Below are positions 1,447-29,147 of a DNA stretch of 64,000 nucleotides, one piece after another. Origin of the DNA: Parcubacteria group bacterium Athens0714_16 (GTDB lineage: Bacteria; Patescibacteriota; Minisyncoccia; Phycocordibacterales; 21-14-all-36-13); assembly GCA_007376805.1 (NCBI GenBank), contig VMGX01000001.1, positions 70,461-134,460 of the forward strand. The letters are read 5' to 3'. The position numbers and the translations under genes are program-made. A model generated the notes under the pieces. The model did no database searches and was not told where the DNA came from. It worked only from the letters and a program-made list of their open reading frames with translations. The stretch's first letter is position 1, and each line of letters starts with the position of its first letter.

Positions 1447-4083
1447 TTAGATAGTAACAATATTTACAAGTTTCCCTTTGATATATATAGTTTTTTTGAT
1501 TTTTTTGTCCCCCACCCATTTTAGAACCACTTCCGATGAAAGAGCTTTTTCTTTTATTTCATCTTCACCAAGACCGTTATCCACAGTAAACTTATCTCTA
1601 ATTTTGCCATCCACTTGAACAACAACAATAAAGTTTTCGTTTTCTTTTATTTCGTCATATTTAGGCCATTCACTTTTTTGGATAGATTCTTTTTCCCCCA
1701 TCTCTGCCCACAATTCTTCTGTCACGTGTGGTGCAAATGGAGAAAAAATTTTCAAAAACTTTTTATAATTTTCTTTACTAATTCCATTCTTATCATAAAC
1801 GAAGTTTACAAACATCATCATGGAACTTACAGCAGTATTAAATTTTATGTTTTCAATGTCTTCTCCAACTTTTTTTATTGTTTTATTTAAATAATTATTT
1901 ACACCCTCGTTTTCATTATCAACTATTTTTTCCGAAAGCCCACAAACTCTTTCAATAAATCTAACCATTCCAACAACTCCATTTGTGCTCCAACTTGTTT
2001 CCTGGTCGTAGGGGCCAACAAACATTTCATAAAGTCGAAATGCATCTACTCCAAATTTTTTAACAACATCTTCTGGATTAATAACATTACCTCTGGACTT
2101 TGACATTTTTTCTCCACCTTCACCAAGAATCATTCCATGGGAGGTTCTTCTCACGTATGGCTCGTCAGTCGGAACCAAGCCGATATCAAACAAAAATTTA
2201 TGCCAAAAACGAGAGTACAAAAGGTGCAACGTTGTATGTTCCATTCCCCCGTTATACCAATCTACAGGAGTCCAATATTTTAATTTATCCATGCTTGCAA
2301 ACTCTTTGTCATTTTTGTTATCTGCATATCTCAAATAATACCAAGATGAACCAGCCCAGTTTGGCATTGTATCTGTTTCTCTTTTTGCAGGACCTCCGCA
2401 TTTTGGACATTTTACATTTACCCATTCTTTTATATCAGCCAATGGTGATTCTCCGTTATCATTCGGCTCATATTTTTTTACATCAGGAAGTTCAAGTGGA
2501 AGTTTTTCATCAACAACCCATCCTGGATTTAAAATTTCACCTTCATTAAATTTTTGATTTTGGATTTCTGATTTTGAATTTGGAACTTCTTTGGAATTTG
2601 GTGCTTGTAATTTGGAATTTTCCATTGATTTTTTGCACAATTCACAAAAAATCAATGGTATTGGTTCTCCCCAATACCTTTGTCTTGAAAAAATCCAATC
2701 GCGTAATTTATAAGTTGTTTTGAGTTCCCCACCAACAAATTTTGTAATTTCTTTAATCGCTTCTTCACTTTTCATTCCATCAAATTTTCCTGAATTCCTT
2801 AATACACCAAACTCTGTCCATATCTCATTACCAGCAAGAATCTTTTTAGTTTTTTCATCAATCGCAGTTGTAGTATCAAAATTATGAAATCCTGTCGGGA
2901 AAATTCCTCCAACCACAGGACTATTTGGATATGGATTGATTACGTTTATTATTTCAATTTTATCTGCGTTTATCTGCGATTTTTTATCTGCGTTCATCTG
3001 CGATGCGAATGCAAAGTCGCGTTCGTCATGTGCCGGAACCGCCATTATTGCTCCGGTCCCATAACCAGCTAAAACATAATCAGCTATAAAAACTGGAATT
3101 TCTTTTTTGTTTGCAGGATTTATTGCTTTAATCCCTTTTAATTCAATACCTGTTTTTTGTTTGCCTTCAGCCGTTCTGTCTATATCTTTCTTTTTTGCTG
3201 TTTCAGAAATATATTTTTCAACTTCTTTAAAATTTGAGATTTGAGATTTGAGTTTTGAGATTATTTCATGTTCTGGCGCCAAAACTAAATATGTAGCGCC
3301 AAACAAAGTGTCTGGTCGAGTTGTAAATACATTTACTTCATTTTTATTTTCAGATTTGAGATTTGAGATTTTAGATTTTATTTCAAAAGCAATCTCTGCT
3401 CCCTCACTTTTCCCTATCCAATTTCTCTGTTGAATTTTTATTTTTTCCAAAAATTCTGTTTTGTCCAAATCATCATATAATCTTTCAGCATATTTTGTTA
3501 TGGCTAACATCCATTGTTCCTTTTCTCTTTTTTCAACTGGCCCACCACATCTTTCACAAACACCATTAACAACTTCTTCATTAGCTAAACCAATTTTACA
3601 ACTCAAACACCAATTTATTGGCATCTTTTTTTTATAAGCGAGACCGTGTTTAAAAAATTGTAAAAATATCCACTGAGTCCATTTGTAATATTCAGGACTT
3701 GAAGTATTAATTTCACGAGACCAATCAAATGAAAACCCCAGCGATTTTAATTGTTTTCTAAAATTGTCTGTATTTTTTTTAGTTATTATTTTTGGATTTA
3801 CACCTGTTTTAATCGCATAGTTTTCCGTCGGTAAACCAAAAGCGTCCCATCCAATTGGATAAAGCACATTAAATCCTTCGGCTCTTTTTTTTCTGGCAAC
3901 AACGTCCATGGCCGTATAACCTCGTGCATGACCAACATGAAGTCCCTCTCCAGATGCATATGGAAATTCTATTAAACAATAATATTTGGGTTTTTTCTTA
4001 TCTTCCGTTGTTTTGTTTATTTCATCTTTCTCCCAAATCTTTTGCCATTTGCTTTCTATTTTTGAATGATTGTATTTCCCCAT
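1447..4083 (-). CDS. leuS: Leucine--tRNA ligase
   Basis: 878-aa ORF. HVGHARGYTAMDVVARKKRAEGFNVLYPIGWDAFGLP (HIGH region) and KMSKSRGN motifs. Contains low-complexity and NADK-repeat insertions. Confidence 0.95.
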   Translation of the reverse strand: MGKYNHSKIESKWQKIWEKDEINKTTEDKKKPKYYCLIEFPYASGEGLHVGHARGYTAMDVVARKKRAEGFNVLYPIGWDAFGLPTENYAIKTGVNPKIITKKNTDNFRKQLKSLGFSFDWSREINTSSPEYYKWTQWIFLQFFKHGLAYKKKMPINWCLSCKIGLANEEVVNGVCERCGGPVEKREKEQWMLAITKYAERLYDDLDKTEFLEKIKIQQRNWIGKSEGAEIAFEIKSKISNLKSENKNEVNVFTTRPDTLFGATYLVLAPEHEIISKLKSQISNFKEVEKYISETAKKKDIDRTAEGKQKTGIELKGIKAINPANKKEIPVFIADYVLAGYGTGAIMAVPAHDERDFAFASQMNADKKSQINADKIEIINVINPYPNSPVVGGIFPTGFHNFDTTTAIDEKTKKILAGNEIWTEFGVLRNSGKFDGMKSEEAIKEITKFVGGELKTTYKLRDWIFSRQRYWGEPIPLIFCELCKKSMENSKLQAPNSKEVPNSKSEIQNQKFNEGEILNPGWVVDEKLPLELPDVKKYEPNDNGESPLADIKEWVNVKCPKCGGPAKRETDTMPNWAGSSWYYLRYADNKNDKEFASMDKLKYWTPVDWYNGGMEHTTLHLLYSRFWHKFLFDIGLVPTDEPYVRRTSHGMILGEGGEKMSKSRGNVINPEDVVKKFGVDAFRLYEMFVGPYDQETSWSTNGVVGMVRFIERVCGLSEKIVDNENEGVNNYLNKTIKKVGEDIENIKFNTAVSSMMMFVNFVYDKNGISKENYKKFLKIFSPFAPHVTEELWAEMGEKESIQKSEWPKYDEIKENENFIVVVQVDGKIRDKFTVDNGLGEDEIKEKALSSEVVLKWVGDKKIKKTIYIKGKLVNIVTI
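2951..3000. repeat. Tandem ATCTGCG iteron array (4 units, ~11-nt period) inside leuS coding sequence, translated in-frame as SQMNADKKSQINADK
   Basis: ttatctgcgtttatctgcgattttttatctgcgttcatctgcg read directly. The same iteron occurs at 6762-6866, 28384-28478, 44917-44958 and 58606-58612. Confidence 0.7.
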
Positions 4084-6260: not shown

Positions 6261-6381
6261 ATTAAACTCAAAGAAAATTTCTTTATTTTAGAATTACACC
6301 TGAAAACGAAAACAAAAGTGGGGCTGTGGTAAAATAAAAAACCCTATCATTCGCTTTCGCTACTAGATAAGGTTTGACCAC

Positions 6382-6630
6382 TTAAATTATTTTAAAAATT
6401 ATTAACAAGATAAATATAACACCAGCAATCACAAACACATCTCTGATTACACAACTCCAATTCCCGACACGAAACCAAAACTTTTTCTTTTTTCGCAGGC
6501 CGGAATTTTCCGGCATATGGTCAAGAAATCTGTTTTGTTTATAGAGATTCCTTCGCTTTGATTCAGAAACTTGAATCAAAAAATGAGCTCCAAGCGCTAA
6601 AACAAATAATATTAAAACAAAAATTTTCAT
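6382..6630 (-). CDS. Small hypothetical membrane protein
   Basis: 82-aa ORF with two hydrophobic segments. No recognisable motif. Confidence 0.3.
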   Translation of the reverse strand: MKIFVLILFVLALGAHFLIQVSESKRRNLYKQNRFLDHMPENSGLRKKKKFWFRVGNWSCVIRDVFVIAGVIFILLIIFKII

Positions 6631-6867: not shown

Positions 6868-7965
6868 TCAAATCTTGAATTCAACGACATCCCCGTCTTT
6901 AACAACATATTCCTTCCCTTCCGTACGAACAAGCCCTTTTGCTTTTGCATTTGCATGTGAACCGGCGTCAACTAAATCTTTCCAATTTATAATTTCTGCA
7001 CGAATAAATTTATCTTTGAAATCAGTGTGAATTGCCATCCCCGCCTCTGGCGCACTTGAATTTCTTTTTATAGTCCACGCCCTCGTCTCATCCTCGCCTG
7101 TCGTCAAAAATGTTATCAAGTCCAAAGCCGAGTACCCTTTTTTAATCAACTCATTTGTTCCGTCATCAAAAACATTTAATTCCTTTCTAAATTCTTTTGC
7201 GTCCTCAACACTCAAGTCCTTCAACTCGTTTTCAATTCCGGCATCAACAATAACAAACTCTGAGCCAGAATCTTTAAAAAACTTCATTAACTTTTCATAT
7301 CTCTCATCTTTTATCTCACACACATCCTTACAACCACTTTTTTTATTTAAAACATAAATTATTTTTTTTGTAGTCAAAAGGTTTAATGTCTTCAAAACTT
7401 CCCTTTCTTCTTTTTCTAAATCAAGTGTTGACGCGAGTTTCCCCTCGTCTAAAACTGCATATACTTTTTTAAAAACCCCTTCTTCAAAAATTGCTTTCTT
7501 ATCTCCCTTCTTAATATCCTTCGCGAGAGTATTAATTCTTTTTGAAACGACTTGAAAATCAGACATTATTAATTCCAAATTTATTATTTCAATATCTTTG
7601 AGCGGGTCTATTTCATTATGAACATGTGTTATATTTTTATCTTCAAATATTCTCACAACCTCCGCAATTGCATCGGTTTCTCTTATGTTCGCCAAAAATT
7701 GATTTCCAAGCCCCTCGCCTTCCGACGCTCCTTTCACAAGCCCCGCAATATCAACAAATTCCACAACCGCTGGAATTTTCTTTTTTGAATTTGAAAATTT
7801 ATTTAATATCTCAACTCGTTCATCGGGCACAGGAACAATCCCCACGGATGGGTCAATTGTGCAGAAAGGATAATTCTCCGCCGGAACGGACTTTTTCGTC
7901 AGCGCATTAAATAGCGTGGACTTCCCCACGTTTGGTAGCCCTACGATTCCTATTGAAATATTCAT
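6868..7965 (-). CDS. ychF: Ribosome-binding ATPase YchF (Obg-family GTPase with TGS domain)
   Basis: N-terminal IGIVGLPNVGKSTLFNALT P-loop, NYPFCTIDP, C-terminal TGS (VRTEGKEYVVKDGDVVEFKI). Confidence 0.9.
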   Translation of the reverse strand: MNISIGIVGLPNVGKSTLFNALTKKSVPAENYPFCTIDPSVGIVPVPDERVEILNKFSNSKKKIPAVVEFVDIAGLVKGASEGEGLGNQFLANIRETDAIAEVVRIFEDKNITHVHNEIDPLKDIEIINLELIMSDFQVVSKRINTLAKDIKKGDKKAIFEEGVFKKVYAVLDEGKLASTLDLEKEEREVLKTLNLLTTKKIIYVLNKKSGCKDVCEIKDERYEKLMKFFKDSGSEFVIVDAGIENELKDLSVEDAKEFRKELNVFDDGTNELIKKGYSALDLITFLTTGEDETRAWTIKRNSSAPEAGMAIHTDFKDKFIRAEIINWKDLVDAGSHANAKAKGLVRTEGKEYVVKDGDVVEFKI

Positions 7966-8621: not shown

Positions 8622-9314
8622 ATGAACACGGAACAAAATAAATATTGGGAAAATGTTTGGTCTAAAAAAGATTTGTTTCTAATCTCTTTATTCATATTGC
8701 TTGTGTTCGCACCATTTGTTGTAATAGCACTTTTAATAAATACCGAACTGGTTTTTAGAATGATGATAATAAATCTTGGTTCATTTTTTGCTATAACATC
8801 TGTTATTTTTACTTATTCAAAAAGAAAAGGTGTAAATATTAAAGAATTTGTTTTTAAAACTCCTGGTTTCAAATGGATGTTTATTGCGGTTCTAATTGCT
8901 TTGGGAGTTGTAATAATTGGCGGGGGTTTATCAAGTGCTTTTTCTAAATTATTAAATTTAGAATCCAGCGATTCGGGTTTAATAAATACGGTTTCAAGCG
9001 GTAAGTTGTGGTTAGATTTAATAAATCTCAAACTTATAGTGGGAATATTAATTCCTTTTGCGGAAGAATTATTTTTTAGAGGATTAATTTTTAGATATTT
9101 AAGACAAAAAAATTCTTTTGTTATGTCAGCACTTTTGAGTTCATTAATTTTTACACTCGCCCACCTTGACCCAACATCAATCTTTTTTACATTTTTGTTA
9201 GGATTTTCAAGTGCTTGGGTATTAGAAAAAACGAAGTCATTAATTCCTTCATTTCTAATTCATATGGGAGCTAACACCTTAGCAATAAACCTCCTCCTTC
9301 TTTCTATTTTTTAG
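8622..9314 (+). CDS. CPBP family intramembrane metalloprotease (CAAX protease/Abi)
   Basis: EELFFRG, FTLAHL and HMGANT motifs in a polytopic membrane protein. Confidence 0.8.
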   Translation: MNTEQNKYWENVWSKKDLFLISLFILLVFAPFVVIALLINTELVFRMMIINLGSFFAITSVIFTYSKRKGVNIKEFVFKTPGFKWMFIAVLIALGVVIIGGGLSSAFSKLLNLESSDSGLINTVSSGKLWLDLINLKLIVGILIPFAEELFFRGLIFRYLRQKNSFVMSALLSSLIFTLAHLDPTSIFFTFLLGFSSAWVLEKTKSLIPSFLIHMGANTLAINLLLLSIF

Positions 9315-9340
9315 GAGTTCAAAAATTAAGTAAAAACAAT

Positions 9341-10519
9341 TTATTTTTGCCCAATTATTTGGCTCATTTGTTGTATCGCTTCAGAAAGTTCTTCTTGAGT
9401 ATAAAAATTTTTATTATTTTTAATAGCTTCGTCTATCTCACTTTTTCTTGTAATTCCACACCTAAGAGTATTTGGATTACCTCCCGAGTGGTGTATCTGA
9501 TGTCGAATATATGTCAGATCAGGAATATCTGTACGTTCTACGCCTTTTTCATTTACATAGATTCTACTTTTTATATTTCCAATTTTCACATCTTTTATAT
9601 GTTTTTTCTGTTTCTTTTCTAAACAACTGTATAAAAAAATAAAAAGTAACTCATCTTCAATTCCGTTTATCAGGCCTTCTTTTAATACTTCAGTCATCCC
9701 ATTATTTTTCTGAAAAGAAAAAATTTTTTTGTTTAATTGTTCATCTAAGGCGGGAAAAACAAAATATGGGTCATGGGTAGTAATAATAACTTGGTGGTTT
9801 GGAAAACTTGCTATTTTTTCCAAGGTCGAATTCAGAGTTCTTTTTAGTTTGGGATGTAAATAAATTTCTGGTTCTTCAAATAAAATAAGAATTTGTTCAC
9901 CAATCAATGAATTATTTTCTAATAAAACATCCATATACGCCTTTAGAACAGAAAGAATTATCAATCTTTGTGTTCCCTGCCCAATTTCATTCAAGTTTCT
10001 CTCTTGTCCTTCTTCATTAACGACAATTTTGTCTATAAAAGATTGTATGATTATTTTTGAGTCCAATTCATTATTAGTAGGGTTTATATTGATTTTGTGT
10101 GTATTACACCCAGTAAAACTTTCAAGATTGATATTTGTTTTGTCTTCTGTATTTTTTAATATTTTTTTAATATTTTTTGAAATGTTTTCATCCAATTTAA
10201 TTTTTAAATTAATGTTTGAAAATAGTTTTGATAAGCTTTCTACCAACCATGTCGTTTTGGCCGTATGCTTCAAGACATCTTCGGATGGTTTTATATTTTC
10301 AGCTTTTATATAAATAATTTGTTCGTCTTTTAGTTTTATTTCTTCATCAAGATCATTAACAAACTTTGTGTTTTTACCAATAATTTCGTTTATAAAATTT
10401 GTTTTTCCAGAATTATTTTCTCCAGTGATTACAGTAATTTGTCCTAGTTCTAAAATAAAATTTTCAGGAATAGTTTTATTTTGTTTTGTAATTTCTATTT
10501 TTTTTATCATGTTATTCAA
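9341..10519 (-). CDS. AAA_21/ABC-type ATPase (defence-associated ATPase family) with uncharacterised ~130-aa C-terminal domain
   Basis: Walker A GENNSGKT, Q-loop/signature-like GQGTQR, Walker B ILILFEEPE, H-loop ITTHDP. Last gene of the MTase-MTase-HNH-ATPase operon. Confidence 0.75.
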   Translation of the reverse strand: MNNMIKKIEITKQNKTIPENFILELGQITVITGENNSGKTNFINEIIGKNTKFVNDLDEEIKLKDEQIIYIKAENIKPSEDVLKHTAKTTWLVESLSKLFSNINLKIKLDENISKNIKKILKNTEDKTNINLESFTGCNTHKININPTNNELDSKIIIQSFIDKIVVNEEGQERNLNEIGQGTQRLIILSVLKAYMDVLLENNSLIGEQILILFEEPEIYLHPKLKRTLNSTLEKIASFPNHQVIITTHDPYFVFPALDEQLNKKIFSFQKNNGMTEVLKEGLINGIEDELLFIFLYSCLEKKQKKHIKDVKIGNIKSRIYVNEKGVERTDIPDLTYIRHQIHHSGGNPNTLRCGITRKSEIDEAIKNNKNFYTQEELSEAIQQMSQIIGQK

Positions 10520-10619
10520 AATGGTTTATAATATTTCTATAATACACCACAACAAACTTGACACAAGTGCAAAAACCCTTTAAAAAGTTGAAAGATTGTG
10601 AATACCTGTGGATAACTAT

Positions 10620-11867
10620 TTATTCTAATTTGATTTTATACCACTTAAATAATTTTTCTAAGTCAAAAATAATACCAACCTTTTCAAGATGTTTTTTTCG
10701 ATTCTCAAATAAATTTTTAATAAAATCCTTTCTTTCTGTATCAACCGCGAGATGAATTTTTCTATGACAATTTGGACAAAGACAAATAATATTTTCTGTA
10801 ATATCTATACTAACATCAAATCTTTTTCTTTCAGAAAATGGTATCAAATGGTGCGCTTCAACATAATTTTTATTATTTGATTTTGAATTAAATGTCATGT
10901 GAGCATTATTATATTCGCATAAATAATTACTATTCTTTTTTGAAAATTCTTTCATGTTTTGACTAGAAAACAATATTTCATCGTCTGTATCTAAATCAAA
11001 ATTTTCTTTTTTCCATTCTTCAATAATCTTTCTTTTTTCTTCAAAAGAAAACCCTTCTTTTTGTAATTTTATTGATAAATTGCTTATTTTTAAGTTTCTG
11101 TTACTTATATTTTTTTCTGATATTTCAATATTTTTGTATTGTTCATCTACGAAGAAAAAATTTGATCTTAGTTTCCCTTTATTATTTTCAATTTCAGATT
11201 TATAATAATCTATTTTAAATGGCGTAAATAAACCAAATTTACTAATATAATAAAAAAGTGGCAATCTAAATTGGTCATTTTTCCTAAAAGATTTTTTTTG
11301 GACTAATCTTGGATTGTAGTTAAACACAGCTCCTATAATATCATTGTATTTGGTTAATTTTCTTTTTATCAACATAGGAGTTTTTTCTATTATATCCATA
11401 GAAATAAATCTATGATTAAAATCAAGTGAACCCCGAGCATCAATGGCTCCTGTAAAAAACATTGTTTTATATGTATCGTCTATATCTATAAGCCATTTTT
11501 CTATAATCCCGTATATATAAACTGACAGATCAACTGTGTTTGGTATTAACAAATCATTTTCTATCACAATAGATACTCCGTTTTTTATTCTTTGACTTTT
11601 ATCTTGTAAACTTGACCTGCTTATATCTTTATTTAATATGACCTCATAGTCATCACCCAAAAAATTTTCTAATTTTTTCTTATGAAGATAATAATATTCA
11701 TTGATGTTTTTCTCTAGTTTATTTTTACTTCTTTTTCCTTTTATGTATGCACTGTATGCTAAAATTTTATTATCATTCAATATAATAAAATGAGCATATA
11801 TCATTCCAAGAACAAAAGATGTTTGTATATTAGTATTTTCTATTTTTAATAACTCACTGAATTTCAT
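10620..11867 (-). CDS. HNH nuclease-domain protein (415 aa, HNH at C-terminus; candidate restriction endonuclease or Septu PtuB-like effector)
   Basis: C-terminal AHHLIPFSERKRF...IICLCPNCHRKIH HNH motif. Large N-terminal domain without recognisable motifs. 15-bp gap to the upstream MTase. Confidence 0.7.
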   Translation of the reverse strand: MKFSELLKIENTNIQTSFVLGMIYAHFIILNDNKILAYSAYIKGKRSKNKLEKNINEYYYLHKKKLENFLGDDYEVILNKDISRSSLQDKSQRIKNGVSIVIENDLLIPNTVDLSVYIYGIIEKWLIDIDDTYKTMFFTGAIDARGSLDFNHRFISMDIIEKTPMLIKRKLTKYNDIIGAVFNYNPRLVQKKSFRKNDQFRLPLFYYISKFGLFTPFKIDYYKSEIENNKGKLRSNFFFVDEQYKNIEISEKNISNRNLKISNLSIKLQKEGFSFEEKRKIIEEWKKENFDLDTDDEILFSSQNMKEFSKKNSNYLCEYNNAHMTFNSKSNNKNYVEAHHLIPFSERKRFDVSIDITENIICLCPNCHRKIHLAVDTERKDFIKNLFENRKKHLEKVGIIFDLEKLFKWYKIKLE

Positions 11868-11882
11868 ATAATTTTTTAACTT

Positions 11883-12563
11883 TTAAAATAACTTTTCTTG
11901 AATGTCATAATCTTTGATTCTTTTTTCCGTCATCTGACAATATTTTTTATTTATATCACCAACTATAAAATTACGAGCCTTTTTCTTACTTGCTACAGCT
12001 GTTGTACCAGAACCAACACAAGGATCTAATACAATATCACCTTTATTTGAACTCACATCTATTAAATATTCAAAAAGTTTCAATGGTTTTTGAGTTAAAT
12101 GTATTTTACTGCTACCATTCGGCATTTTTATAACTGTATTTTTATATTTTTCATTAAATGTTGCTCCTCTTTTTTTAAAATATATAAAAGATTCTACACC
12201 ACTAAGCCAAACGTGTTTTGAATTCATAGGACTGGGATTGGTTTTTTCCCAAATCATGAGACGAACAGAATAATTTTTGGAATTAAAATAATCAAAAATT
12301 TCTGATATCTGTTCTTTACCACAAAAAATATAACCACTACCTCTTGTAACTCTGTCTATCTCTACCAAAAAATCTCTTAATTCAAAGGTTTTTTTATTTG
12401 CTTCTCCTTTATCTAAATTTCTTAATCCGTTTGATTTTTTATTAACTTTTTCATAAGGTATATCAGTTAATACCAGATCAATAAAATTATTATCAATCAT
12501 TCTTAATAACAAAATTGCATCTTTTTGGTAAATCTTATTTAACTGAATGGTTTCTTTTTTCAT
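11883..12563 (-). CDS. Beta-class DNA methyltransferase (N4-cytosine or N6-adenine)
   Basis: Motif IV DIPY (DPPY-like) precedes motif I DPCVGSGTT. Overlaps the upstream Dcm gene by 29 nt. Confidence 0.8.
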   Translation of the reverse strand: MKKETIQLNKIYQKDAILLLRMIDNNFIDLVLTDIPYEKVNKKSNGLRNLDKGEANKKTFELRDFLVEIDRVTRGSGYIFCGKEQISEIFDYFNSKNYSVRLMIWEKTNPSPMNSKHVWLSGVESFIYFKKRGATFNEKYKNTVIKMPNGSSKIHLTQKPLKLFEYLIDVSSNKGDIVLDPCVGSGTTAVASKKKARNFIVGDINKKYCQMTEKRIKDYDIQEKLF

Positions 12564-13593
12564 ATCTTAATATATGTTTTGCAATTGCTTCCCCAAGTAA
12601 CGGTGGCACAGCATTCCCTATTTGTTTTATAATTGAAGACTTATTCCCAAAAAATATAAAATCATCTGGAAATGATTGAATTCTTGCCGCCTCTCTGGGA
12701 GTTATTGCTCTATGTAAAAATGGGTGTGAATTTTTTCCATTAGAAGGGGTATCAAATCTTGTTACAATAGTTGGACTGGGTTTATTTTTTTCTAATCTAC
12801 CCCATGTTTGTCCAAAAGTTGATGATATTTTTTCACTTAGAAACTCCTTTCCTTTCTCTGGTGGAATTCTTTTTAATCTATCGATGGCAATTTCAGAGTG
12901 TTTTGTGGCAACATGATTAAATAACTTTTTTGAATTTTTCCTCATTTTCTTTTGATACTTGCTTCTAGATTCTATTTTATATTCTGACTCAAAATTACCA
13001 TCGCCAGAATTTAAATACGACAAATCTGAGATTGCTTCCCAAACAGTAATTTTTCTATTAGTATTTTTTTCTGGCAACAAAAGTTTATCTTTTAATGATC
13101 CTATAAATATTGCTCTTTTTCTGTTTTGTGGAACCCCAAAATCAGAAGCGTCCAAAATACCAAAAGATATTTTATATCCAACCTTTGTTAATTCATTTAA
13201 AATTTGTTTTTTAAAATATCCACCTTGTTCTGTTAAAATAGTAGGCACATTTTCCATAACAAAATAAGTTGGTTTAAAAAATTTAATATATTTTATATAT
13301 TCTTTGAATAAAAAATTTCTTTCATCGTTTAATCCAGCTCTTTTTCCTTTTAATGAAAAGCCCTGACACGGTGGTCCACCAATAATTACATCTACATTTT
13401 TTATTTTCGATTTGATTTTTTGAGGTTTTATATTTCTTATATCTCCAACAAATATTTCCGTATTTTTATGATTTCTTTTCATTGATTCAGCAATCATTTT
13501 GTCATATTCCAATGCACCGACAATACAAAAACCCGCCATTTCAAAACCACGGCTTAATCCACCAACACCAGAAAATAAATCCAAAACTTTCAT
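12535..13593 (-). CDS. DNA (cytosine-5)-methyltransferase
   Basis: Motif I LFSGVGG, motif IV GGPPCQGFS, ENV motif. Confidence 0.9.
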   Translation of the reverse strand: MKVLDLFSGVGGLSRGFEMAGFCIVGALEYDKMIAESMKRNHKNTEIFVGDIRNIKPQKIKSKIKNVDVIIGGPPCQGFSLKGKRAGLNDERNFLFKEYIKYIKFFKPTYFVMENVPTILTEQGGYFKKQILNELTKVGYKISFGILDASDFGVPQNRKRAIFIGSLKDKLLLPEKNTNRKITVWEAISDLSYLNSGDGNFESEYKIESRSKYQKKMRKNSKKLFNHVATKHSEIAIDRLKRIPPEKGKEFLSEKISSTFGQTWGRLEKNKPSPTIVTRFDTPSNGKNSHPFLHRAITPREAARIQSFPDDFIFFGNKSSIIKQIGNAVPPLLGEAIAKHILRYEKRNHSVK

Positions 13594-13809
13594 TTTTTAA
13601 TAATTGTATCAGAAAAAATTTATTACTACTTCATTTTACCATTTTAAAATAATTATAAAAACAAAAACAATCGTCTTACTGCGATTGTCTTTATAACCTC
13701 TAGATTAGCTCTGCGCTTAGACCGTACTCACTAAATCATAAAATTATCCAGCAATATACAAACGGTTTGGCTCTCAGGTGGTCTCTAGAATTTTTAAGTT
13801 AAATATGTC

Positions 13810-14252: not shown

Positions 14253-14672
14253 CTACCCCCTTGAAATTGAGTTAATGATTTTATAAACACAAAACAAAGA
14301 AAGCAGTATTGGAATTAAAACAGATATTCCAAAGGCAACCGCAAAAAGAATATGTTGGAAACTTCCTATAACTACCACTCCGTTTGGTTGGAGTGTAATA
14401 GTAAATATCAAAAAAATATAGGGGATAAACGAACCTAAAATTATACGATTTATATAAATAAGATTTTTTTCTGATAAATTATTTTTAGAGAGTTCAAAGA
14501 AAAAATAAGAAGTTACATATAATGCTATTGGAAGAAAAAATTCAACAAATGTTTCAAATTGTCTCCCCGGAGAATAGGACATAATAGTTGGAAACAAAAG
14601 AACAACAACAAGAAGCGTTTTGAATCTATTTTGGATGTCATTTAATATTTCTTTTTGTTTTTCATTTAACAT
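14253..14672 (-). CDS. Hypothetical membrane protein (4 TM)
   Basis: Hydrophobic 139-aa ORF preceded by the conserved promoter-like module (TGGTAGAAT). Confidence 0.4.
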   Translation of the reverse strand: MLNEKQKEILNDIQNRFKTLLVVVLLFPTIMSYSPGRQFETFVEFFLPIALYVTSYFFFELSKNNLSEKNLIYINRIILGSFIPYIFLIFTITLQPNGVVVIGSFQHILFAVAFGISVLIPILLSLFCVYKIINSISRG

Positions 14673-14826
14673 ATTATTCAGTGCACCAATATCTATATTC
14701 TACCACTTTGAAAAAAATTGAATAACATCATCTCCACGTCCCACAAAACCTTTAAAAACTCCCAAAATCTCTATACAACCATTTAATTAAATGATTGAAT
14801 ACAAAAAAACTATTCAATTATTTAAT

Positions 14827-14868
14827 CCTGCCCCGTAGCCCAGCCCCGGGCTGGTGGTACTGGGGTGG
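14827..14868. repeat. GC-rich hairpin element (CCCCGTAGCC-CAGCCCCGGGCTGG-TGGTACTGGGG) inserted in the centre of the 26-nt palindromic repeat
   Basis: Member of a 4-copy family (16237-16272, 18911-18943, 61329-61359) with conserved outer arms CCCGTAGC / GYTACTGGG and covarying inner stems. Confidence 0.55.
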
Positions 14869-15216
14869 ATTAGAGAAAGTATCCGTATCCTCTAAAAACC
14901 CCATGCAACCATTCAATTGAATTAGAGAAAGTATTTCTCAACATTATTTTTGTCTGTTTTTGTATACAACCATTCAATTGAATTAGAGAAAGCATCCGTA
15001 TTCCCCCAAAACTTCTATACAACCATTCAATTGAATTAGAGAAAGCATTTCTCAACATTATTTTTGTCTGTTTTTGTATACAACCATTCAATTGAATTAG
15101 AGAAAGTACCCGTATCCTCTAAAAACCTCCATACAACCATTCAATTGAATTAGAGAAAGCATTTCTCAACATTATTTTTGTCTGTTTTTGTATACAACCA
15201 TTCAATTGAATCTTTA
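14868..15216. repeat. Higher-order tandem repeat: 26-nt unit CAACCATTCAATTGAATTAGAGAAAG alternating with two spacer types (A ~27 nt, B 35 nt), ~3 copies of a ~115-bp super-unit
   Basis: Direct reading. Spacer B (catttctcaacattatttttgtctgtttttgtata) is identical three times. Spacer A variants are near-identical. Overlaps the 3' end of the Fic ORF. Confidence 0.8.
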
Positions 15217-16136
15217 TCTCTTGAATTACTATCTGCAACAAACAAGGTCAAAGCTGTAAGAGTTGGCGGTGTTAATTTAGATAAATTTAAAATACCGGCT
15301 TTTTTCAAAAACCATATAAAAGCATACGCTCCCGTTCTTTTGTTTCCATCAACAAGCGGATGATTTTTTACTATAAAATATAAAATGTGTGCAGCTTTTT
15401 CTTCTACTGTAGGGTATAAATCTTTTTTATCAAACGATTGAAAAATTGAACCAACAATTCCTTCTATACTTCCATCAACACGTTCTTGTCCAAACAAATC
15501 ACCCGCTAAATTCTTTTTAGTAAGTTCTTTTTTAAAATCAGAAAAAGCATTAAACAATTCTTGAGCTACAAAAACTATTCGTTTTTTAGTCGCACCTTTT
15601 TGTGGTAAATAAGATTTGTCGTAGGCGTCAAGCGACAACCATGTGTTTGCAAAAGCAGAAATCAATTCAATCATACTGGCATGATCAACGCTTGAACTCG
15701 CGGGAAGTGAGTGCTTAATATTTTCAACCGCTTTTTGAAATTGCGTATAGTTTTTTGCAATTTGTTTTTTGTTTATTACATAGCCATCAACAATATATTG
15801 ACGAAGTGTTTTGGTTGCCCATTTACGAAATTCAATCGCTACTCTCGAATTTGTTCTATAACCAATTCCTAAAATAACATCGAGTGAATAAAGTGTGATT
15901 GGTTTATCAGAATTTGCATTATGCATTTTTTGCATATTGCTTTTTTCTTCAATTTCACCATCTCTAAATATATTCTTTATGTGACGAGATACCACAGATT
16001 GATCAACACCAAAAAGATCCACAATTTGCGCTTGCGTTGCCCAAATAGTTTCGTGTGTAAAATCACCTTTTAATTCTATGGAACCACTTTTGGTTTGATA
16101 TACAACAATATCTTTAGTTTTTTTAACTTTTTTCAT
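15150..16136 (-). CDS. Fic/Doc family protein with RhuM-like N-terminal domain
   Basis: Fic motif HPLVDGNKRTGAYAF. N-terminal region matches the RhuM-type pattern (TKSGSIELKGDFTHETIWATQAQIVDLFGVDQSVVSRHIKNIF). C-terminal ~25 codons run into the tandem repeat. Confidence 0.75.
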   Translation of the reverse strand: MKKVKKTKDIVVYQTKSGSIELKGDFTHETIWATQAQIVDLFGVDQSVVSRHIKNIFRDGEIEEKSNMQKMHNANSDKPITLYSLDVILGIGYRTNSRVAIEFRKWATKTLRQYIVDGYVINKKQIAKNYTQFQKAVENIKHSLPASSSVDHASMIELISAFANTWLSLDAYDKSYLPQKGATKKRIVFVAQELFNAFSDFKKELTKKNLAGDLFGQERVDGSIEGIVGSIFQSFDKKDLYPTVEEKAAHILYFIVKNHPLVDGNKRTGAYAFIWFLKKAGILNLSKLTPPTLTALTLFVADSNSRDKDSIEWLYTKTDKNNVEKCFL

Positions 16137-16149
16137 TTTTTTATATAAA

Positions 16150-16400
16150 AGTATTTATATTCTACCACTTTGAAAATTTTTTAAAAAATTTGAATAACCC
16201 TCCAAATTTTCTAAAAACCTCCATACAACCATTCAATCCTGCCCTGTAGCCAACTTGTTGTGGTACTGGGGTGAATTAGAGAAAGTATCCGTATCCTCTA
16301 AAAACCTCCATGCAACCATTCAATTGAATTAGAGAATACATCCGTTAAGTTTTTGTATATAACCATTCAATTGAATTAGAGAATAGAGAGAACGGAAAGG
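16150..16400. repeat. Promoter-like conserved module plus copies of the 26-nt palindromic repeat and a GC hairpin element (16237-16272)
   Basis: tattctaccactttgaaaattttttaaaaaatttgaataaccctccaaatt is shared with 14690-14740 and 17900-17950. caaccattcaattgaattagagaa occurs twice. Confidence 0.6.
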
Positions 16401-16444
16401 AAACAAAAAATAAATCGATGCAATAACAAACTACAACCCAAAAA

Positions 16445-16723
16445 TTATAAACCTGAGATTATGTTTGAAATAAAATTTGGCAACGATTTTGATATTGAAT
16501 AATAAACGAGTAAGCTTCTCTGATCAGGTGAGAGTATTTCAACGGCTTCCAAAAGTTTTATATGTTTTGAGGTGGCTTGAATAGAAATCTTTAATTCCTC
16601 GGCTATGTCACCCACCGATGCTTCGCCTTCTTTTTTAATAAATGAAATAATTGCTAGCCGACGATAATTCGCCAACGCCTTGATTGATCTCTCTAATTTT
16701 TTAAATTGTTTTGCTTCAATCAT
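16445..16723 (-). CDS. ArsR/SmtB-family winged-HTH transcriptional regulator
   Basis: LANYRRLAIISFIKKEGEASVGDIAEELKISIQATSKHIKLLEAVEIL matches the ArsR HTH pattern. Confidence 0.55.
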   Translation of the reverse strand: MIEAKQFKKLERSIKALANYRRLAIISFIKKEGEASVGDIAEELKISIQATSKHIKLLEAVEILSPDQRSLLVYYSISKSLPNFISNIISGL

Positions 16724-16825
16724 TTTTTATATTTTTAACTTTTAATATTCCAAAAATATTTTTTGTTTTTGTAATTAATTCTAAAATATTTTTACTGAAT
16801 ATATTATATCTCTCAAAAATCCACC

Positions 16826-16910
16826 ATACAACCATTCAATTGAATTAGAGAATACATCCGTTAAGTTTTTGTATACAACCATTCAATTGAATTAGAGAAA
16901 GCATTTATAA
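16826..16910. repeat. Two further copies of the 26-nt palindromic repeat CAACCATTCAATTGAATTAGAGAA upstream of the ArsR-like gene
   Basis: Direct reading. Spacer catccgttaagtttttgtata is shared with 16340-16362. Confidence 0.6.
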
Positions 16911-17043
16911 AAACGCCTGCTCGCCTTTGGAGAGAACGGGTAATTAAATTAGAAAATAGAAAGAAAATAAATCTATCCCCCTATTCGCTACAATTAGGGG
17001 ATAGATAATGCAAAAAATAAACGGGTCTATTTTTAAAAATTTT

Positions 17044-17886
17044 CTATAAAAAATACATATCTTGTCCATAACCACCAACACCAATATATTCTGCCTCGCC
17101 TTTCAAAATAGATTCGTATGGCTTACAAGCAAAACATCCTTTTTCTCCGCGAGGACAATTGAAAATTTCTTTTTCTCTGGCCTCTTTAACTTTTAAAGCA
17201 ATCGCAAGCACTTTTTCTTTGGCTTCATCAATATTTGGCAATTTCATTTCTATTGGTTCGTCATCTTTATCAAGATACCAATATGATGCTCCTGAAATTT
17301 TTCTTTTTTGTAATGCATTTAAAAGCAAGAGGTAGATTGGAAGCTGAAGTGAATCTTCGGCTTCGTCATTTTTACCAGTTTTAAAATCAATGATACGAAC
17401 ACTGTCATTTTTTTCAACATATTCCAACCAATCAATAAGCCCACAAAGTATTATATTTTCATCTTCGGAAAGATAAAAATTTGGTGGCATATTATTATGT
17501 CCATCTTTTATTTTTACAGTTTTTCTTGCAATAGGTCCCGGATTTTTTATAACCCGTTCTATCATTTCAACTCCTCTTTTTTTAAATTCATTTTCTTCGT
17601 CATCATTTTTAAATCCGCCTTTTTTACCAGATACTTGCGACCAAGCATTTTCAAAATCGGCTAAAAAATCTCGCTTCATTCTTTCTTCAACTGGAATATT
17701 TTTTGATGATTCAAGTGTGGTATGCACTGCCTGACCAAGAGAAAGATACGGATTAACTATATTTATTTTTCTCCCAGTTTTTGGGTCTTTATAAATATTG
17801 TGCAAATAATAAGCCCGTGGACATTTCAAAAAATCCCCCATTGAAGAATGCGATACCCATATTGACTTGTATTTATCTGGCGTCAT
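17044..17886 (-). CDS. PD-(D/E)XK nuclease, Cas4/RecB-C-terminal-like with 4-Cys cluster
   Basis: N-terminal Cys (LKCPRAY), IDFKTGK (D/E-x-K), C-terminal CPRGEKGCFAC (Cx6Cx2C) typical of Cas4-type Fe-S nucleases. Confidence 0.6.
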   Translation of the reverse strand: MTPDKYKSIWVSHSSMGDFLKCPRAYYLHNIYKDPKTGRKINIVNPYLSLGQAVHTTLESSKNIPVEERMKRDFLADFENAWSQVSGKKGGFKNDDEENEFKKRGVEMIERVIKNPGPIARKTVKIKDGHNNMPPNFYLSEDENIILCGLIDWLEYVEKNDSVRIIDFKTGKNDEAEDSLQLPIYLLLLNALQKRKISGASYWYLDKDDEPIEMKLPNIDEAKEKVLAIALKVKEAREKEIFNCPRGEKGCFACKPYESILKGEAEYIGVGGYGQDMYFL

Positions 17887-17899
17887 TGTTTTAAATAAT

Positions 17900-18080
17900 T
17901 ATTTATATTTTACCACTTTAAAAATTTTTTAAAAAATTTGAATAACCCTCCAAATTCCACAAAATTCTTTAATTCTTTAATTTCTCTATTCAACCATTTA
18001 ATTAAATGATTGAATACAAAAAAACTATTCAATTATTTCCTACAAAAACGGACGAGTAATTAAATTAGAAAATAGTTTCT
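17900..18080. repeat. Promoter-like conserved module plus stem-loop module (ttaaatgattgaatac aaaaaaa ctattcaattattt)
   Basis: Near-identical to 14690-14826. Contains TGGTAAAAT/TGGTAGAAT extended -10-like sequence on the minus strand ~22 nt upstream of the ATG. Confidence 0.6.
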
Positions 18081-18099
18081 GGTATTAAATATAATAAAA

Positions 18100-18121
18100 A
18101 CCCGCTTCTCTCGGAAGCGGG
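18100..18121. terminator. Hairpin cccgcttctctcggaagcggg with A-run on plus and T-run on minus
   Basis: Would terminate a minus-strand transcript covering 18122-18470. Confidence 0.5.
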
Positions 18122-18505
18122 CATGGCCACAAAGGCCTAGGGTCAAACCATGTAGTGTGGAATTTGTTCGTTTCTGCTCGTCCTCAAATCCAGGACCCAA
18201 TCTGGTTATCTGATTTTCGAGACAGTACAACCCTTAAACAATTCCGAATGATCGAGTGTTTCACTATAATTTTAAATATTTCATTTCGGGTTTGCACTCC
18301 ATATTTAAAATTTCTAGCTATCCCTGTCTAGCGGGAACCCATAGGAACCTAAGTAAAGATTTTCATTCTCTCCCCGTCCCATGAGAGAGAACATCGATGA
18401 ATTTGGGACAAAAGTCCATATCACTATTCTTATTTGTCCCATCTAAGAATAATGAACCGTAGATACATTATAGCAGATACAAAAAATGTGTCAATACGCA
18501 AAAAT

Positions 18506-18796
18506 TTAATCACTCAAATATTTGTGCATAGTAGTATCTTCCGGTATTGTCCATGCTCCTTCACGCAAAGGAATGATGAGTGTCTTTATATAAAAAACTC
18601 TCATGTTTTTATACCGTCTTGATTTTTCTATAACAACGGTACAAACATCTTTTTCATCGGCAGAAACTAATTCTGCAAGTTTTTTTGCATTGGAGTTCAA
18701 CATATCAACGATTTCCTTCACATAAGGAGAATTGTCAGTATATCCGACAACCCAAAATAATATTTTTTCAGAAAGTGAATAAAAAAGATTTTTCAT
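18506..18796 (-). CDS. Hypothetical protein
   Basis: 96-aa ORF, no recognisable motif. Confidence 0.35.
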   Translation of the reverse strand: MKNLFYSLSEKILFWVVGYTDNSPYVKEIVDMLNSNAKKLAELVSADEKDVCTVVIEKSRRYKNMRVFYIKTLIIPLREGAWTIPEDTTMHKYLSD

Positions 18797-19004
18797 TTCA
18801 ACACCTACTTTTGTTTATATTTTATTGAACTTTTCGCTGTATATAATACATGAATATATTATTTTGTCAATATTTAGTAATAGGTTTTCTCATTCTCTAA
18901 TCCAATTTATCCCGTAGCCAACTTGTTGTGGTACTGGGACAGGATTAGAGAATGGAAAAAACAAAAAAATTATGAATTAAAAATCTCATTAAGAGCTTTT
19001 TAAT

Positions 19005-20978: not shown

Positions 20979-23099
<2,121 letters not shown>

Positions 23100-23299
23100 T
23101 TATGGTTAAAAATAAAAATATCGCCACTTTGCGATGGTGTTATTATAGCAAAAATTCCTTTATTTTGAAAGGAATTTTTGTCATTTCTGTGCATAAATTC
23201 AAAAGCCCTGGGAGGGCTTTTGAATCCATAATGTGGTCGTTTTTTAAGGTATTATTTTAGTTTAAAAAATTATATATTTAAAAACTGACACTCTTCTTG

Positions 23300-27841: not shown

Positions 27842-28672
27842 CTAAAATTGATTTACCAATCTCAAATCTCCAGAATAAAGCATCCTTATATCTGGAATTT
27901 CGTATTTAAGCATAACCAATCTGTCTATACCAACCCCAAATGCGAAACCCTGCCACTCTTGTGGATTAATCCCACAATTTTCTAAAACCTTTGGATGAAC
28001 CATGCCCGCACCCATTATTTCTATCCACCCGGTTCCCTTACATATTGAACAACTTGAATTTATTTTTTTATCTTTTGCACATTTAAAACATGTCATATCA
28101 ACTTCAAGTCCCGGTTCAACGAATGGGAAATAACTTGGTCGAAAACGAATATCAATTTTTGCTTCAAAAAATTTTTCTAAAAATTCCTTCAAAACACCTC
28201 TAAGATTAGCGAGTGTAGTATTTGGAGTAATCATAAGTCCTTCCAATTGATAAAACTGTGCTTCATGTGTTGCATCCGTTGCTTCATATCTAAAACATTT
28301 TCCGGGAGCAATAATTTTTATAGGAGGTTTATTTTTCTCCATATATCTAATCTGAACAGGAGAAGTGTGTGTTCTTAACAACGCAGATTCTCGCAGATTT
28401 TCACGCAGATTTACGCCAATGTTTTTATCTGCATTCATCTGCGTTTTTTTATCTGCGTTTATCTGCGTCTTAATCCAAAAGGTATCCCACATATCTCGTG
28501 CTGGATGATTTGCAGGAATATTTAGTGCATCAAAATTATGATATTCATCTTCCATGTGTGGCCCATCCACTATTTCAAATCCCAAATCATCAAATATTTG
28601 AGCTATTTTCATCATTGCCAATGACAATGGATGATAATGTCCTTTTTCTTTGTTTTTGTCTTGTGGCTCCAT
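27842..28672 (-). CDS. pheS: Phenylalanine--tRNA ligase alpha subunit (short form lacking N-terminal coiled coil)
   Basis: HPARDMWDTFWI, FRPSYFPFVEPGLEVDM, GAGMVHPKVLENCGI motifs. Contains the NADK-repeat insertion. Confidence 0.85.
   Translation of the reverse strand: MEPQDKNKEKGHYHPLSLAMMKIAQIFDDLGFEIVDGPHMEDEYHNFDALNIPANHPARDMWDTFWIKTQINADKKTQMNADKNIGVNLRENLRESALLRTHTSPVQIRYMEKNKPPIKIIAPGKCFRYEATDATHEAQFYQLEGLMITPNTTLANLRGVLKEFLEKFFEAKIDIRFRPSYFPFVEPGLEVDMTCFKCAKDKKINSSCSICKGTGWIEIMGAGMVHPKVLENCGINPQEWQGFAFGVGIDRLVMLKYEIPDIRMLYSGDLRLVNQF
28384..28478. repeat. ATCTGCG iteron array in inverted arrangement (3x CGCAGAT then 4x ATCTGCG) inside pheS, translated in-frame (INADKKTQMNADKNIGVNLRENLRES)
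   Basis: Direct reading of cgcagattctcgcagattttcacgcagatttacgccaatgtttttatctgcattcatctgcgtttttttatctgcgtttatctgcg. Confidence 0.7.
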
Positions 28673-28781: not shown

Positions 28782-29147
28782 TTAATTATCTTCAATTGGT
28801 TTATTTAATTTAAATATTCTAAATTTATCTTTCAAGCCAATTTCTTGTAAATAATTAATGAAATATTTGGGTAGCGGTGATGGCCCAGCCCAAACACTTC
28901 TCTGTATCAAAATAAAACCAAGATTTATTAATTGGCGACGAAACCAATCTCTTTCCCTTTTTAAGGTATCCGGTATGTCATACACTAAAAGTAAATTTTT
29001 AGGACTATTTTCCTTCAAATCAGATGTAAATGAATTAAGATATTCTCTTTTAATATATTTTCTTTTTTTCTCACAATTGTTAGAAACAGGGATTCCTATT
29101 AAATTTACCGTTAATCCTTTATATTTAAATTTTTTTCTTTCAGCCAT
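28782..29147 (-). CDS. Small Cas2/VapD-fold-like hypothetical protein
   Basis: LLVYDIPDTLKRERDWFRRQLINLGFILIQRSVW resembles the Cas2/VapD core pattern (VYDI..RR..v.k.L..yG.r.Q.SV). No CRISPR array or cas1 nearby. Confidence 0.35.
   Translation of the reverse strand: MAERKKFKYKGLTVNLIGIPVSNNCEKKRKYIKREYLNSFTSDLKENSPKNLLLVYDIPDTLKRERDWFRRQLINLGFILIQRSVWAGPSPLPKYFINYLQEIGLKDKFRIFKLNKPIEDN

Follow-up and report, generated by a model that had tools for sequence, protein, structure and literature searches.

The window analysed here is a 64-kb stretch of the genome (30% GC) of Parcubacteria group bacterium Athens0714_16, and its subject is a family of short intergenic repeats lying among minus-strand genes between gyrB (20979-23096) and ychF (6868-7965). 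The core of the family is an imperfect dyad, the M box, copies of which bracket single genes. In gene orientation, the string runs from gyrB through a low-molecular-weight phosphatase, a small open reading frame (ORF), an HI0933-like flavoprotein, a 96-aa ORF, and a 365-nt unit without an ORF to a Cas4-like nuclease, ArsR, RhuM/Fic, a 139-aa membrane protein, and DUF1508; it ends in two DNA methyltransferases with an HNH endonuclease, followed by an OLD/Gabija-like ATPase. An earlier note, made from the sequence alone, read this stretch as a modular, integron-like array of gene cassettes. A re-scan of the sequence finds the features that it described at or near the places it gave. Pattern and domain scans reported below apply to the window unless other loci are named, and gene calls were checked against Pfam, NCBIfam, and PADLOC. 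L-numbers designate fetched comparison loci or contigs, with L001-L003 being co-occurring haplotypes and L028-L030 other fragments of the same genome. The features of the repeat-bearing stretch are as follows.

14253-14672, minus strand: gene for a 139-aa predicted membrane protein, the last in the repeat-bounded stretch (ORF list)
14690-14725, minus strand: 36-nt partial copy of the shared promoter module, before the membrane protein gene (repeat search, motif scan)
14769-14880, minus strand: box split by two hairpins (repeat, fold, and motif scans)
14869-15212, minus strand: tandem array of three 114-nt units, 92% matching, the units ending at 15211 (repeat search)
15150-16136, minus strand: RhuM/Fic(DOC) gene (Pfam; PADLOC PDC-S23; compared with L002, L040, and six homologues)
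16138-16208, minus strand: shared promoter module, Fic copy (repeat search, motif scan)
16226-16283, minus strand: M box split between TTCA and ATTG by a 34-nt GC hairpin at 16238-16271 (repeat and motif scans)
16313-16383, minus strand: two M boxes downstream of ArsR, with starts 47 nt apart (pattern scan)
16445-16723, minus strand: ArsR/SmtB-family winged-helix regulator, 92 aa, with no cysteines (Pfam HTH_20/HTH_5; NCBIfam NF033788)
16803-16899, minus strand: pair of M boxes upstream of ArsR, at 16829-16852 and 16876-16899 (pattern scan)
16941-17006, minus strand: variant-box left arm CTATTTTCTAATTTAATTA (16941-16959) and, at 16971-17006, a palindromic hairpin (loop GTAGCG) that marks the Cas4-like gene's 3' end
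17044-17886, minus strand: PD-(D/E)XK nuclease, Cas4-like, with four cysteines (domain searches; syntenic in L007/L026, L010, and L031)
17886-17956, minus strand: shared promoter module, Cas4-like copy (repeat search, motif scan)
17984-18075, minus strand: variant box split by the second copy of an AT-rich stem-loop (repeat and motif scans)
18100-18494, minus strand: ORF-less unit with promoter and intrinsic terminator (sequence inspection, Rfam, RNAfold)
18506-18796, minus strand: 96-aa ORF without an assigned function (ORF list, domain searches)
18891-18955, minus strand: symmetric element composed of left arm CCATTCTCTAATCC, a GC hairpin, and the left-arm complement GGATTAGAGAATG (repeat, fold, and motif scans)

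The M box (CAACCATTCAATTGAATTAGAGAA) is present as eight exact copies and one copy with a single mismatch, all on the plus strand between 14906 and 16899, against a chance expectation of zero in 100 shuffles of the window. The 26-nt palindrome-containing repeat of the earlier note is thus real, with nine copies, but its length is 24 nt, or about 30 nt when conserved flanks are included. Read in gene orientation as TTCTCT(A/T)ATT-CAATTG-AATGGTTGTAT, the box is an imperfect dyad with a 10-nt left arm, a 6-nt palindromic centre, and a dissimilar 10-nt right arm; the outer arms are not complementary to each other. A variant box (ATTTAATTAAAT) reads TTTTCTAATT-TAATTA-AATAGTTGAATAG in gene orientation, a paired change from C-G to T-A that preserves the dyad. 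All repeat-family copies within the window lie at 14.7-19 kb. Neither the M arms nor the ATTC-N4-GAAT dyad is found elsewhere in the 64 kb or in the 27 kb of further fragments of the same genome (L028-L030). The idea that the arms are a DNA-uptake sequence, over-represented throughout the genome and forming terminators, was considered and rejected, since in the window they do not occur outside this locus.

Intact copies are all in direct orientation and are arranged in tandem or in pairs. The tandem array holds five intact M boxes (starting at 14906, 14967, 15020, 15081, and 15134) that alternate with 37-nt and 29-nt spacers, and a sixth, truncated box (15195-15212) is joined to the Fic coding sequence. 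Gene-free gaps between successive boxes measure 23, 29, or 37 nt, giving three spacer types in the window, and each gene sits between one right arm and the next left arm. Other copies are split close to the box centre by a GC hairpin, an AT-rich hairpin, or both, and these hairpins carry conserved bulged bases. For example, the element at 14769-14880 consists of right arm AAATGGTTGTATAGAG (14769-14784), an AT-rich stem-loop (14789-14823), a GC hairpin (14827-14868), and then left arm TTCTCTAAT, and the one at 17984-18075 of a right arm (17984-17999), a stem-loop (18004-18038), and a left arm (18057-18075). The stem-loop module and GC-rich hairpins reported earlier are borne out: the AT-rich module has two 56-nt copies (14768-14823 and 17983-18038) that are 98% identical, and the GC hairpin core CCCAGTACCAC occurs three times where 0.17 occurrences are expected.

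A related class of elements combines the left arm with its own complement, in the form CTATTCTCTAATT-(CGCGCG, CGCTAC, or GTAGCG)-AATTAGAGAATAG. These symmetric palindromes are located at gene 3' ends, as with the element at 18891-18955, which directly follows the HI0933-like gene, and also upstream of an ArsR paralogue; one palindrome of right arm with right arm was also seen. An alignment of nine of them in gene orientation contains three variable stem pairs that take the forms CG, UG, or UA, with U·G as the sole intermediate and no C·A. Pairing is kept in 89% of cells compared with 84.5% in shuffles, none of 500 shuffles reaches the observed value, and the signal is lost when the partner column is slid, in a sample that is small and made up of related sequences. 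The strand asymmetry of these pair changes argues that the symmetric palindromes act as RNA hairpins at gene 3' ends, that is, as 3'-end or terminator structures of the transcript.

Three genes share a promoter module. The earlier note placed a module of about 50 nt before each of them; the modules are there, but the shared length is 71 nt for two genes (90% identity between 16138-16208, before Fic, and 17886-17956, before the Cas4-like gene), and the membrane protein gene has only the 36-nt partial copy. The promoter core TTCAAAGTGGTAGAAT, found at 14697-14712 before the membrane protein gene, with its extended -10 TGGTAGAAT, ends 22, 24, and 20 nt ahead of the three ATGs, which agrees with the extended -10-like core some 22 nt before the ATG described earlier. 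ArsR lacks the shared module and has its own promoter instead. Across lineages, the module stands ahead of five genes: those for the Cas4-like nuclease, Fic, NYN, and the membrane protein, and one of 750 aa. Ahead of the C5 methyltransferase gene, TTTAAAATGGTAAAAT (13633-13648, minus strand) follows the same extended -10 pattern, so the promoter core may simply be the promoter form that the organism prefers.

Taken together, the repeats are a real, well-delimited, and new lineage-specific mosaic family. Its modules are a small lineage-specific intergenic set: the M box, the hairpin-split M box, the symmetric palindrome, and the portable promoter module.

The gene products differ in how firmly they are assigned. 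The RhuM and Fic combination matches PADLOC candidate PDC-S23 (E=6e-97), and the ArsR/SmtB regulator scores 58 bits against NF033788, whose cut-off is 55; both confirm the earlier annotation. The nuclease scores 35.9 against TIGR00372, under the cut-off of 65, and for this reason it can be termed only Cas4-like. The 139-aa membrane protein has no match in Pfam, NCBIfam, or PADLOC. In the window, the Fic ORF is 328 aa long with a chimeric 3' end, its final 19 codons deriving from the repeat array and substituting for the conserved C-terminus of the family, KVIGLILMLLKK.

Haplotype contigs of the same organism from other samples, found through exact-protein look-ups, reveal how the locus varies. 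Over 7.1 kb of one flank and 5.0 kb of the other, L001 matches the window at 100% identity, and it lacks window positions 14996-16905, which comprise ArsR, Fic, and their repeats; its junction falls inside about 40 nt common to two repeat copies, a position compatible with precise exchange. L002 has the full gene set and a Fic that ends in the normal C-terminus of the family. Compared with L002, the window has lost 12 codons from the end of Fic, together with the 3' untranslated region and the left arm of the box that follows, so that its Fic ORF reads on into the repeats; it also has one repeat unit more than the compared haplotype. At 16906, the window is missing 31 nt downstream of the Cas4-like gene that are present in L001-L003. 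The Fic 3' deletion and the 31-nt indel have ends outside the box centre, whereas the ArsR and Fic deletion ends inside the shared 40-nt stretch. The window and L002 show 15 differences, of which 13 fall at 16210-16312, in the one repeat copy upstream of Fic, and this copy resembles the one at 14877-14905 upstream of the membrane gene. Such a concentration of differences in one repeat copy that resembles another is a signature of gene conversion. The comparison shows direct repeats, nearly identical and ranging from 35 to more than 100 nt, apparently recombining, converting, and slipping, with loss of ArsR and Fic, duplication of a unit, and truncation of a gene among the results; reversed gene order and the presence or absence of Fic and NYN units, seen between lineages (below), belong here too.

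The short-read origin of the assemblies raises the question of whether the variability itself could be an artefact of assembly across repeats. Two assemblies, from two other samples, do break within repeats, 133 nt upstream of the membrane gene, and the array of three 114-nt units exceeds typical reads. However, with an assembly k of 119, as inferred from contig names, the junctions of the ArsR and Fic deletion and of the Fic truncation have only about 40 and 2 nt in common with the alternative arrangements, far less than k, and reads must therefore cross them. Flanks of 4.7-7 kb are 100% identical between arrangements, and the same kind of differences appears across independent studies and species. 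An artefact is therefore very unlikely as the general explanation of the variation.

The box is not confined to this organism. Pattern scans find it in three other Patescibacteria genomes and 18 metagenome loci. At the syntenic gyrB-ychF locus in three lineages (L007/L026, L010/L021, and L031), boxes bracket ArsR and the Cas4-like gene; the order is ArsR then Cas4-like in L007/L026, L010, and L031 and is reversed in the window, and the neighbours differ. A contig related to L010 has two further units, NYN and an 83%-identical Fic, each with the same promoter module, and the same repeats at both of its ends. Elsewhere, box arrays surround a 109-aa gene (L020/L027) or are gene-free (L015), and single boxes occur in ordinary intergenic regions such as pyrG-secA. 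Large differences in gyrB-ychF content, including the restriction-modification system and ATPase of the window and the 750-aa gene and others of L031, are not box-bounded. Searches of viral contigs with three further module patterns gave no exact match.

These comparisons refine the earlier picture of defence or accessory cargo. Fic does vary in presence, but ArsR and the Cas4-like gene are residents of the locus in related species and not variable cargo, even though ArsR is missing from one haplotype. The modular layout of repeat, promoter, gene, and repeat is upheld, and its modules recur in other genomes. Related strains differ in the presence of ArsR and Fic, in gene order, and in Fic and NYN units; the modules are thus neither confined to one locus of invariant gene order nor simply the 5' ends of paralogous genes, the findings that the earlier note had said would speak against cassettes.

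The position of the M box relative to arsR suggests a function. In the proximal upstream box, TTGTAT lies exactly 17 nt ahead of the arsR TATAAT (16803-16831). In five lineages, TTGTA(T/G) keeps this distance of 17 nt from the arsR -10 without exception, and in these the M core is the sole invariant block of the arsR upstream region. Homologues found in unrelated gene contexts retain a dyad, whose sequence shifts in the more distant ones. A 78%-identical ArsR homologue in L032, which follows a P-type ATPase, has an M box on both sides; a 66%-identical one is bracketed by ATTCCCTTATT-TAGCTA-AATAAGGGAAT; a 58%-identical one has CCCATT-CGTACG-AATG directly before a TACAAT -10 and a long downstream palindrome with the same core; and a 46%-identical one has TTGTCTTATT-CGTACG-AATGGTACAAT followed by the start codon. 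An 88-aa ArsR paralogue at three loci has CATTCTCTAATT-CGCTAC-AATTAGAGAATG, or a CGCGCG version, about 40 nt before the ATG and a related hairpin after the stop. All of the sites that bracket ArsR retain ATT-N6-AAT, with the upstream site in or next to the promoter, and dyads bracket both families of ArsR paralogues at all 12 loci examined. Furthermore, the M box aligns base for base with the L039 promoter TTGTCTTATTCGTACGAATGGTACAAT, and the recognition-helix residues S-x4-S-x-H are invariant across the compared ArsR proteins.

ArsR/SmtB repressors are reported to recognise imperfect inverted repeats of 12-2-12 form that lie at the promoter of the regulated gene or overlap it, arsR itself usually being among the genes regulated (PMC8790569). 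Written as a 12-2-12 repeat, TTCTCTAATTCA-AT-TGAATGGTTGTA, the M box fits this rule in form and in promoter position. With the dyads of the ArsR homologues and the fixed 17-nt spacing, this fit is the ground for reading the M box as probably an ArsR operator/promoter, a prediction made from sequence. An operator fused to a promoter hexamer would also account for the asymmetry of the box and its fixed orientation. ArsR would then bind the M box at its own promoter and regulate itself, and multiplied boxes might let it co-regulate the Cas4-like nuclease, the toxin-like Fic protein, and the membrane protein as one group. Recombination, conversion, and slippage between the direct repeats would delete, duplicate, and reorder units, and units could be gained by homologous exchange with DNA bearing the same flanking modules, so that a cassette-like pattern could arise without a dedicated integrase. 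The whole explanation, in which the locus varies among strains by homologous recombination between repeats and the M box serves as an ArsR operator, is given a probability of roughly 0.5.

Several observations weigh against this combination of recombination and operator. Boxes split by 34-90 nt at the dyad centre could not be bound as a normal duplex dyad, and most copies in the arrays have no -10 at the proper distance. Box spacings of 46, 47, 48, 53, 56, and 61 nt do not keep a constant helical phase. A box is also present downstream of every ArsR gene, beyond the need of autoregulation; haplotype L001 retains boxes without ArsR; and single boxes lie far from any ArsR gene, for example in the pyrG-secA spacer. 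On the side of recombination, copy-number differences in the tandem array (342 nt) could in part reflect short-read assembly error, so unit counts are to be treated cautiously, junctions within identical repeats fit homologous and site-specific recombination alike, and the examination for recombinases covers 64 kb of the genome.

Repeats of the repetitive extragenic palindrome (REP), bacterial interspersed mosaic element (BIME), or BOX kind offer a different account: selfish or structural palindromes that have no transcription factor of their own and act only at the RNA level, as hairpins, terminators, or stabilisers at 3' ends in a string of genes transcribed together, whose proximity to ArsR is incidental or reflects an insertion preference and whose recombination causes the variation. 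The mosaic architecture, the changes in tandem copy number, the RNA-type covariation of the symmetric palindromes, and the constant placement of hairpin inserts at the box centre all suit such elements, as do related palindromes after non-ArsR genes (Cas4-like, NYN, and a 413-aa gene) and in the pyrG-secA spacer and the existence of several other palindrome families in these genomes, one of which flanks a Y1 transposase in L010 resembling a REP-associated tyrosine transposase (RAYT). The locus agrees with these families in its short palindromes joined by few linkers, its intergenic placement, and its variable tandem number; it departs from them in the absence of genome-wide dispersal, as copies are few, at one locus in this genome and at one to few loci in others. 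Also against this account, the stem of the asymmetric M box is only 4-6 bp, its distance of 17 nt from the arsR -10 is fixed in five lineages, and dyads bracket both ArsR paralogue families at every one of the 12 loci examined. A link to RAYT was rejected, since the window contains no homologue and the L010 gene is flanked by a palindrome of its own, TTTAGTCCAAGGG...CCCTTGGACTAAA. Action at the RNA level only is thus possible but unlikely. A far more remote idea is that the arrays encode guide or antitoxin RNAs, as degenerate arrays of the CRISPR or tandem interspaced guide RNA (TIGR) kind or type III toxin-antitoxin repeats. Regularly spaced 24-nt repeats with 23-37-nt spacers beside a Cas4-like gene evoke such arrays, and TIGR arrays have been reported in candidate phyla radiation (CPR) bacteria, with a 36-nt period and 9-nt spacers (PMC12045711). 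However, the spacers here are themselves repeated, in three types, protein genes lie within the array, and the period is 47-61 nt instead of 36 nt. No Cas1/Cas2, effector, or Nop-domain Tas is encoded at the locus, nor any ToxN-like toxin, and the nuclease is under the Cas4 cut-off. Spacer repetition, period, and missing effectors largely refute all three versions.

The M box could also be the crossover site of a recombinase encoded elsewhere (Xer-like, another tyrosine recombinase, or an enzyme whose substrate is folded single-stranded DNA), in which case the units would be true mobile cassettes. Its geometry of arm, 6 nt, and arm is apt for this, the combinations left/left', left/right, and right'/right are all seen, direct boxes bracket single genes, and short gene-less units lie between boxes; units come and go and change order, the box centre holds hairpins whose bulged bases are conserved, and the loss of ArsR and Fic is compatible with box-by-box exchange. 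On the other hand, at least two haplotype differences end outside the box centre, one of them destroying a gene end, copies undergo gene conversion, and repeat lengths of 35 to more than 100 nt are enough for RecA-type exchange. Boxes do not bound the variable genes nearby (restriction-modification system, ATPase, and 750-aa gene), and the modules were not found on viral contigs. Identity with a dif site, which has an 11-6-11 layout and occurs once at the replication terminus, was rejected: by eye, against a consensus taken from general knowledge, there is no dif similarity, each genome has several loci, and the skew does not turn at the locus. As the earlier note had remarked, no integrase is visible: Pfam scans and gene tables list no recombinase or transposase domain among the ORFs examined in the 64 kb, and the gene tables of L031 and L032 list no recombinase. 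Strict pairs of the attC cores RYYYAAC and GTTRRRY, 50-150 nt apart, number zero on either strand of 14601-19000, and relaxed pairs there number 18 compared with 22.4 +/- 6.8 in shuffles. With neither IntI in the window nor attC architecture, an integron or a cluster of attC sites lacking integron-integrases (CALIN) was rejected as its identity, and a literature search on integrons in Patescibacteria found nothing relevant. A remote crossover enzyme is, on this balance, improbable. The integron-like mechanism proposed in the earlier note is contradicted by the lack of a recombinase in 64 kb, the lack of attC core sites, and the imprecision of several haplotype differences, which are deletions, duplications, and gene conversion: the locus is not an integron. 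An integron-analogous platform for gene capture, free of attC and IntI, in which a remote recombinase acts on the M box or the hairpin foot and the units from box to box, each with a standard promoter and a standard operator, are mobile cassettes wired to the resident ArsR, is also quite doubtful.

The 365-nt unit among the repeat-bounded genes has a consensus sigma-70 promoter, TTGACA-16-TATAAT with an upstream TG, at 18467-18494 and a terminator at 18100-18122. These enclose about 365 nt in which the largest ORF is at most 56 aa and for which RNAfold gives a z-score of -2.7. The unit is identical in haplotypes L001 and L002, has no Rfam match and no homologue in any fetched locus, and shows no homology to the 234-aa gene that L026 has in the corresponding place. 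A non-coding RNA specific to the lineage and the recent remnant of a gene are both conceivable. At gathering thresholds, Rfam finds only two tRNAs in the window, both far from the locus, and at E<=5 over 13.5-19.1 kb only chance microRNA and sRNA matches.

Directly downstream of the repeat array, a defence cluster (9341-13593) encodes two DNA methyltransferases, one C5 and one N4/N6, along with an HNH endonuclease of 415 aa that weakly matches type IV restriction and an OLD/AriA/GajA-like ATPase of 392 aa in which no Toprim domain is visible. Farther away, next to pheS, 28782-29147 (minus strand) encodes a 121-aa protein with a PaaX-type Cas2-like domain (PF20803, E=3e-12) and a homologue at the same position in L031; the window holds no CRISPR array or other cas genes.

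Palindromes of other families are found in L006 (about 300-560), L010 (about 6350-6400 and 9380-9420), and the window (about 23200-23260), with examples such as ATTCAAATGCTC...GAGCATTTGAAT and AAAACCTC...GAGGTTTT, and suggest that stereotyped intergenic hairpins are a general trait of these Parcubacteria. In L010 (9517-10200, minus strand) and at the start of L021, a 227-aa Y1/HUH transposase-like protein adjoins gyrB; it scores 29.5 bits against Pfam Y1_Tnp, has HFH and YIHLN motifs, and has a palindrome on both sides in the REP/RAYT arrangement. A further motif, ACGCAGAT(A/G)AA, has tandem and inverted copies in frame within pheS (about 28381-28468), between the conserved DTFWIK and LLRTHTS stretches, and within leuS (about 2958-3004), and is repeated directly upstream of gyrB in L010 (about 9280-9330). 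The in-gene copies resemble Rickettsia palindromic elements that insert in frame into genes. Finally, TTCTCTTATTCAATTGAATGATT, a 23-nt match to the box variant, occurs in five contigs, two viral and three metagenomic (L008, L009, L013, L014, and L017; for example L008 6840-6863), in GC-rich unrelated context with a GC hairpin before it; one of these contigs is 1.49 Mb long, and the matches are probably coincidental.

CPR bacteria have very small genomes with few recognisable mobile elements, and little is understood of the ways in which accessory and defence genes pass between them. The locus points to a concrete route, in which an operator-like box, hairpins, and a portable promoter bracket single genes and recombination removes, duplicates, and reorders the units; units are probably also imported through recombination between modules, within one natural population. 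If the box is an ArsR operator, incoming genes would immediately be controlled by a regulator already resident and by a standard promoter; genes would thus be captured and regulated in a simple way for which a dedicated integrase would be unnecessary. The analysis also offers a candidate operator for an uncharacterised ArsR clade without obvious metal ligands, and it describes a family of repeats at which short-read assemblies of these genomes break.

Among known systems, the locus has most in common with mosaic intergenic repeats, namely the REP/BIME elements of enterobacteria and the BOX elements of Streptococcus pneumoniae. The locus resembles them in combining palindromes with few linkers into mosaic arrays of variable copy number between co-oriented genes, in its evidence for RNA hairpins, and in serving as a recombination substrate. 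It differs in that its copies are few, at one locus, and all direct, that one module is a promoter, and that the core box is conserved across species and tied to a regulator gene. In the pdif modules of Acinetobacter plasmids, XerC/XerD sites bound gene modules. Small gene modules bounded by sites of about 26-28 bp with arm, 6 nt, and arm, in varied combinations, are common to both, but the orientation of pdif sites alternates and their sequence fits the Xer consensus, whereas the boxes here are direct and chromosomal and do not implicate Xer.

Integrons and CALINs share with the locus co-oriented single-gene units parted by structured, imperfectly palindromic, species-specific repeats, units that are present or absent and reordered between close relatives, and cargo of toxin-like and defence-like character. 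Unlike integrons, the locus has units that each carry their own promoter, often an identical one, shows no IntI or other recombinase in the window and no attC core sites, has one imprecise variant junction, and places its repeat on the promoter/operator of a regulator; moreover, two of its "cassettes", ArsR and the Cas4-like gene, are resident across species. TIGR-Tas and CRISPR systems (PMC12045711) resemble it in the regularly interspaced short repeats in a CPR genome, but period, spacer size, and spacer diversity differ, genes lie inside the array, and there is no Tas or Cas effector. ArsR/SmtB operators (PMC8790569) differ from the locus in its up to five or six tandem copies, its downstream copy for each ArsR gene, its hairpin-split copies, and an ArsR without obvious metal-binding residues. 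What the two have in common is an imperfect inverted repeat of about 26 bp over the -35 or -10 of the regulator's own gene and a dyad that is kept while its sequence shifts with the divergence of the protein.

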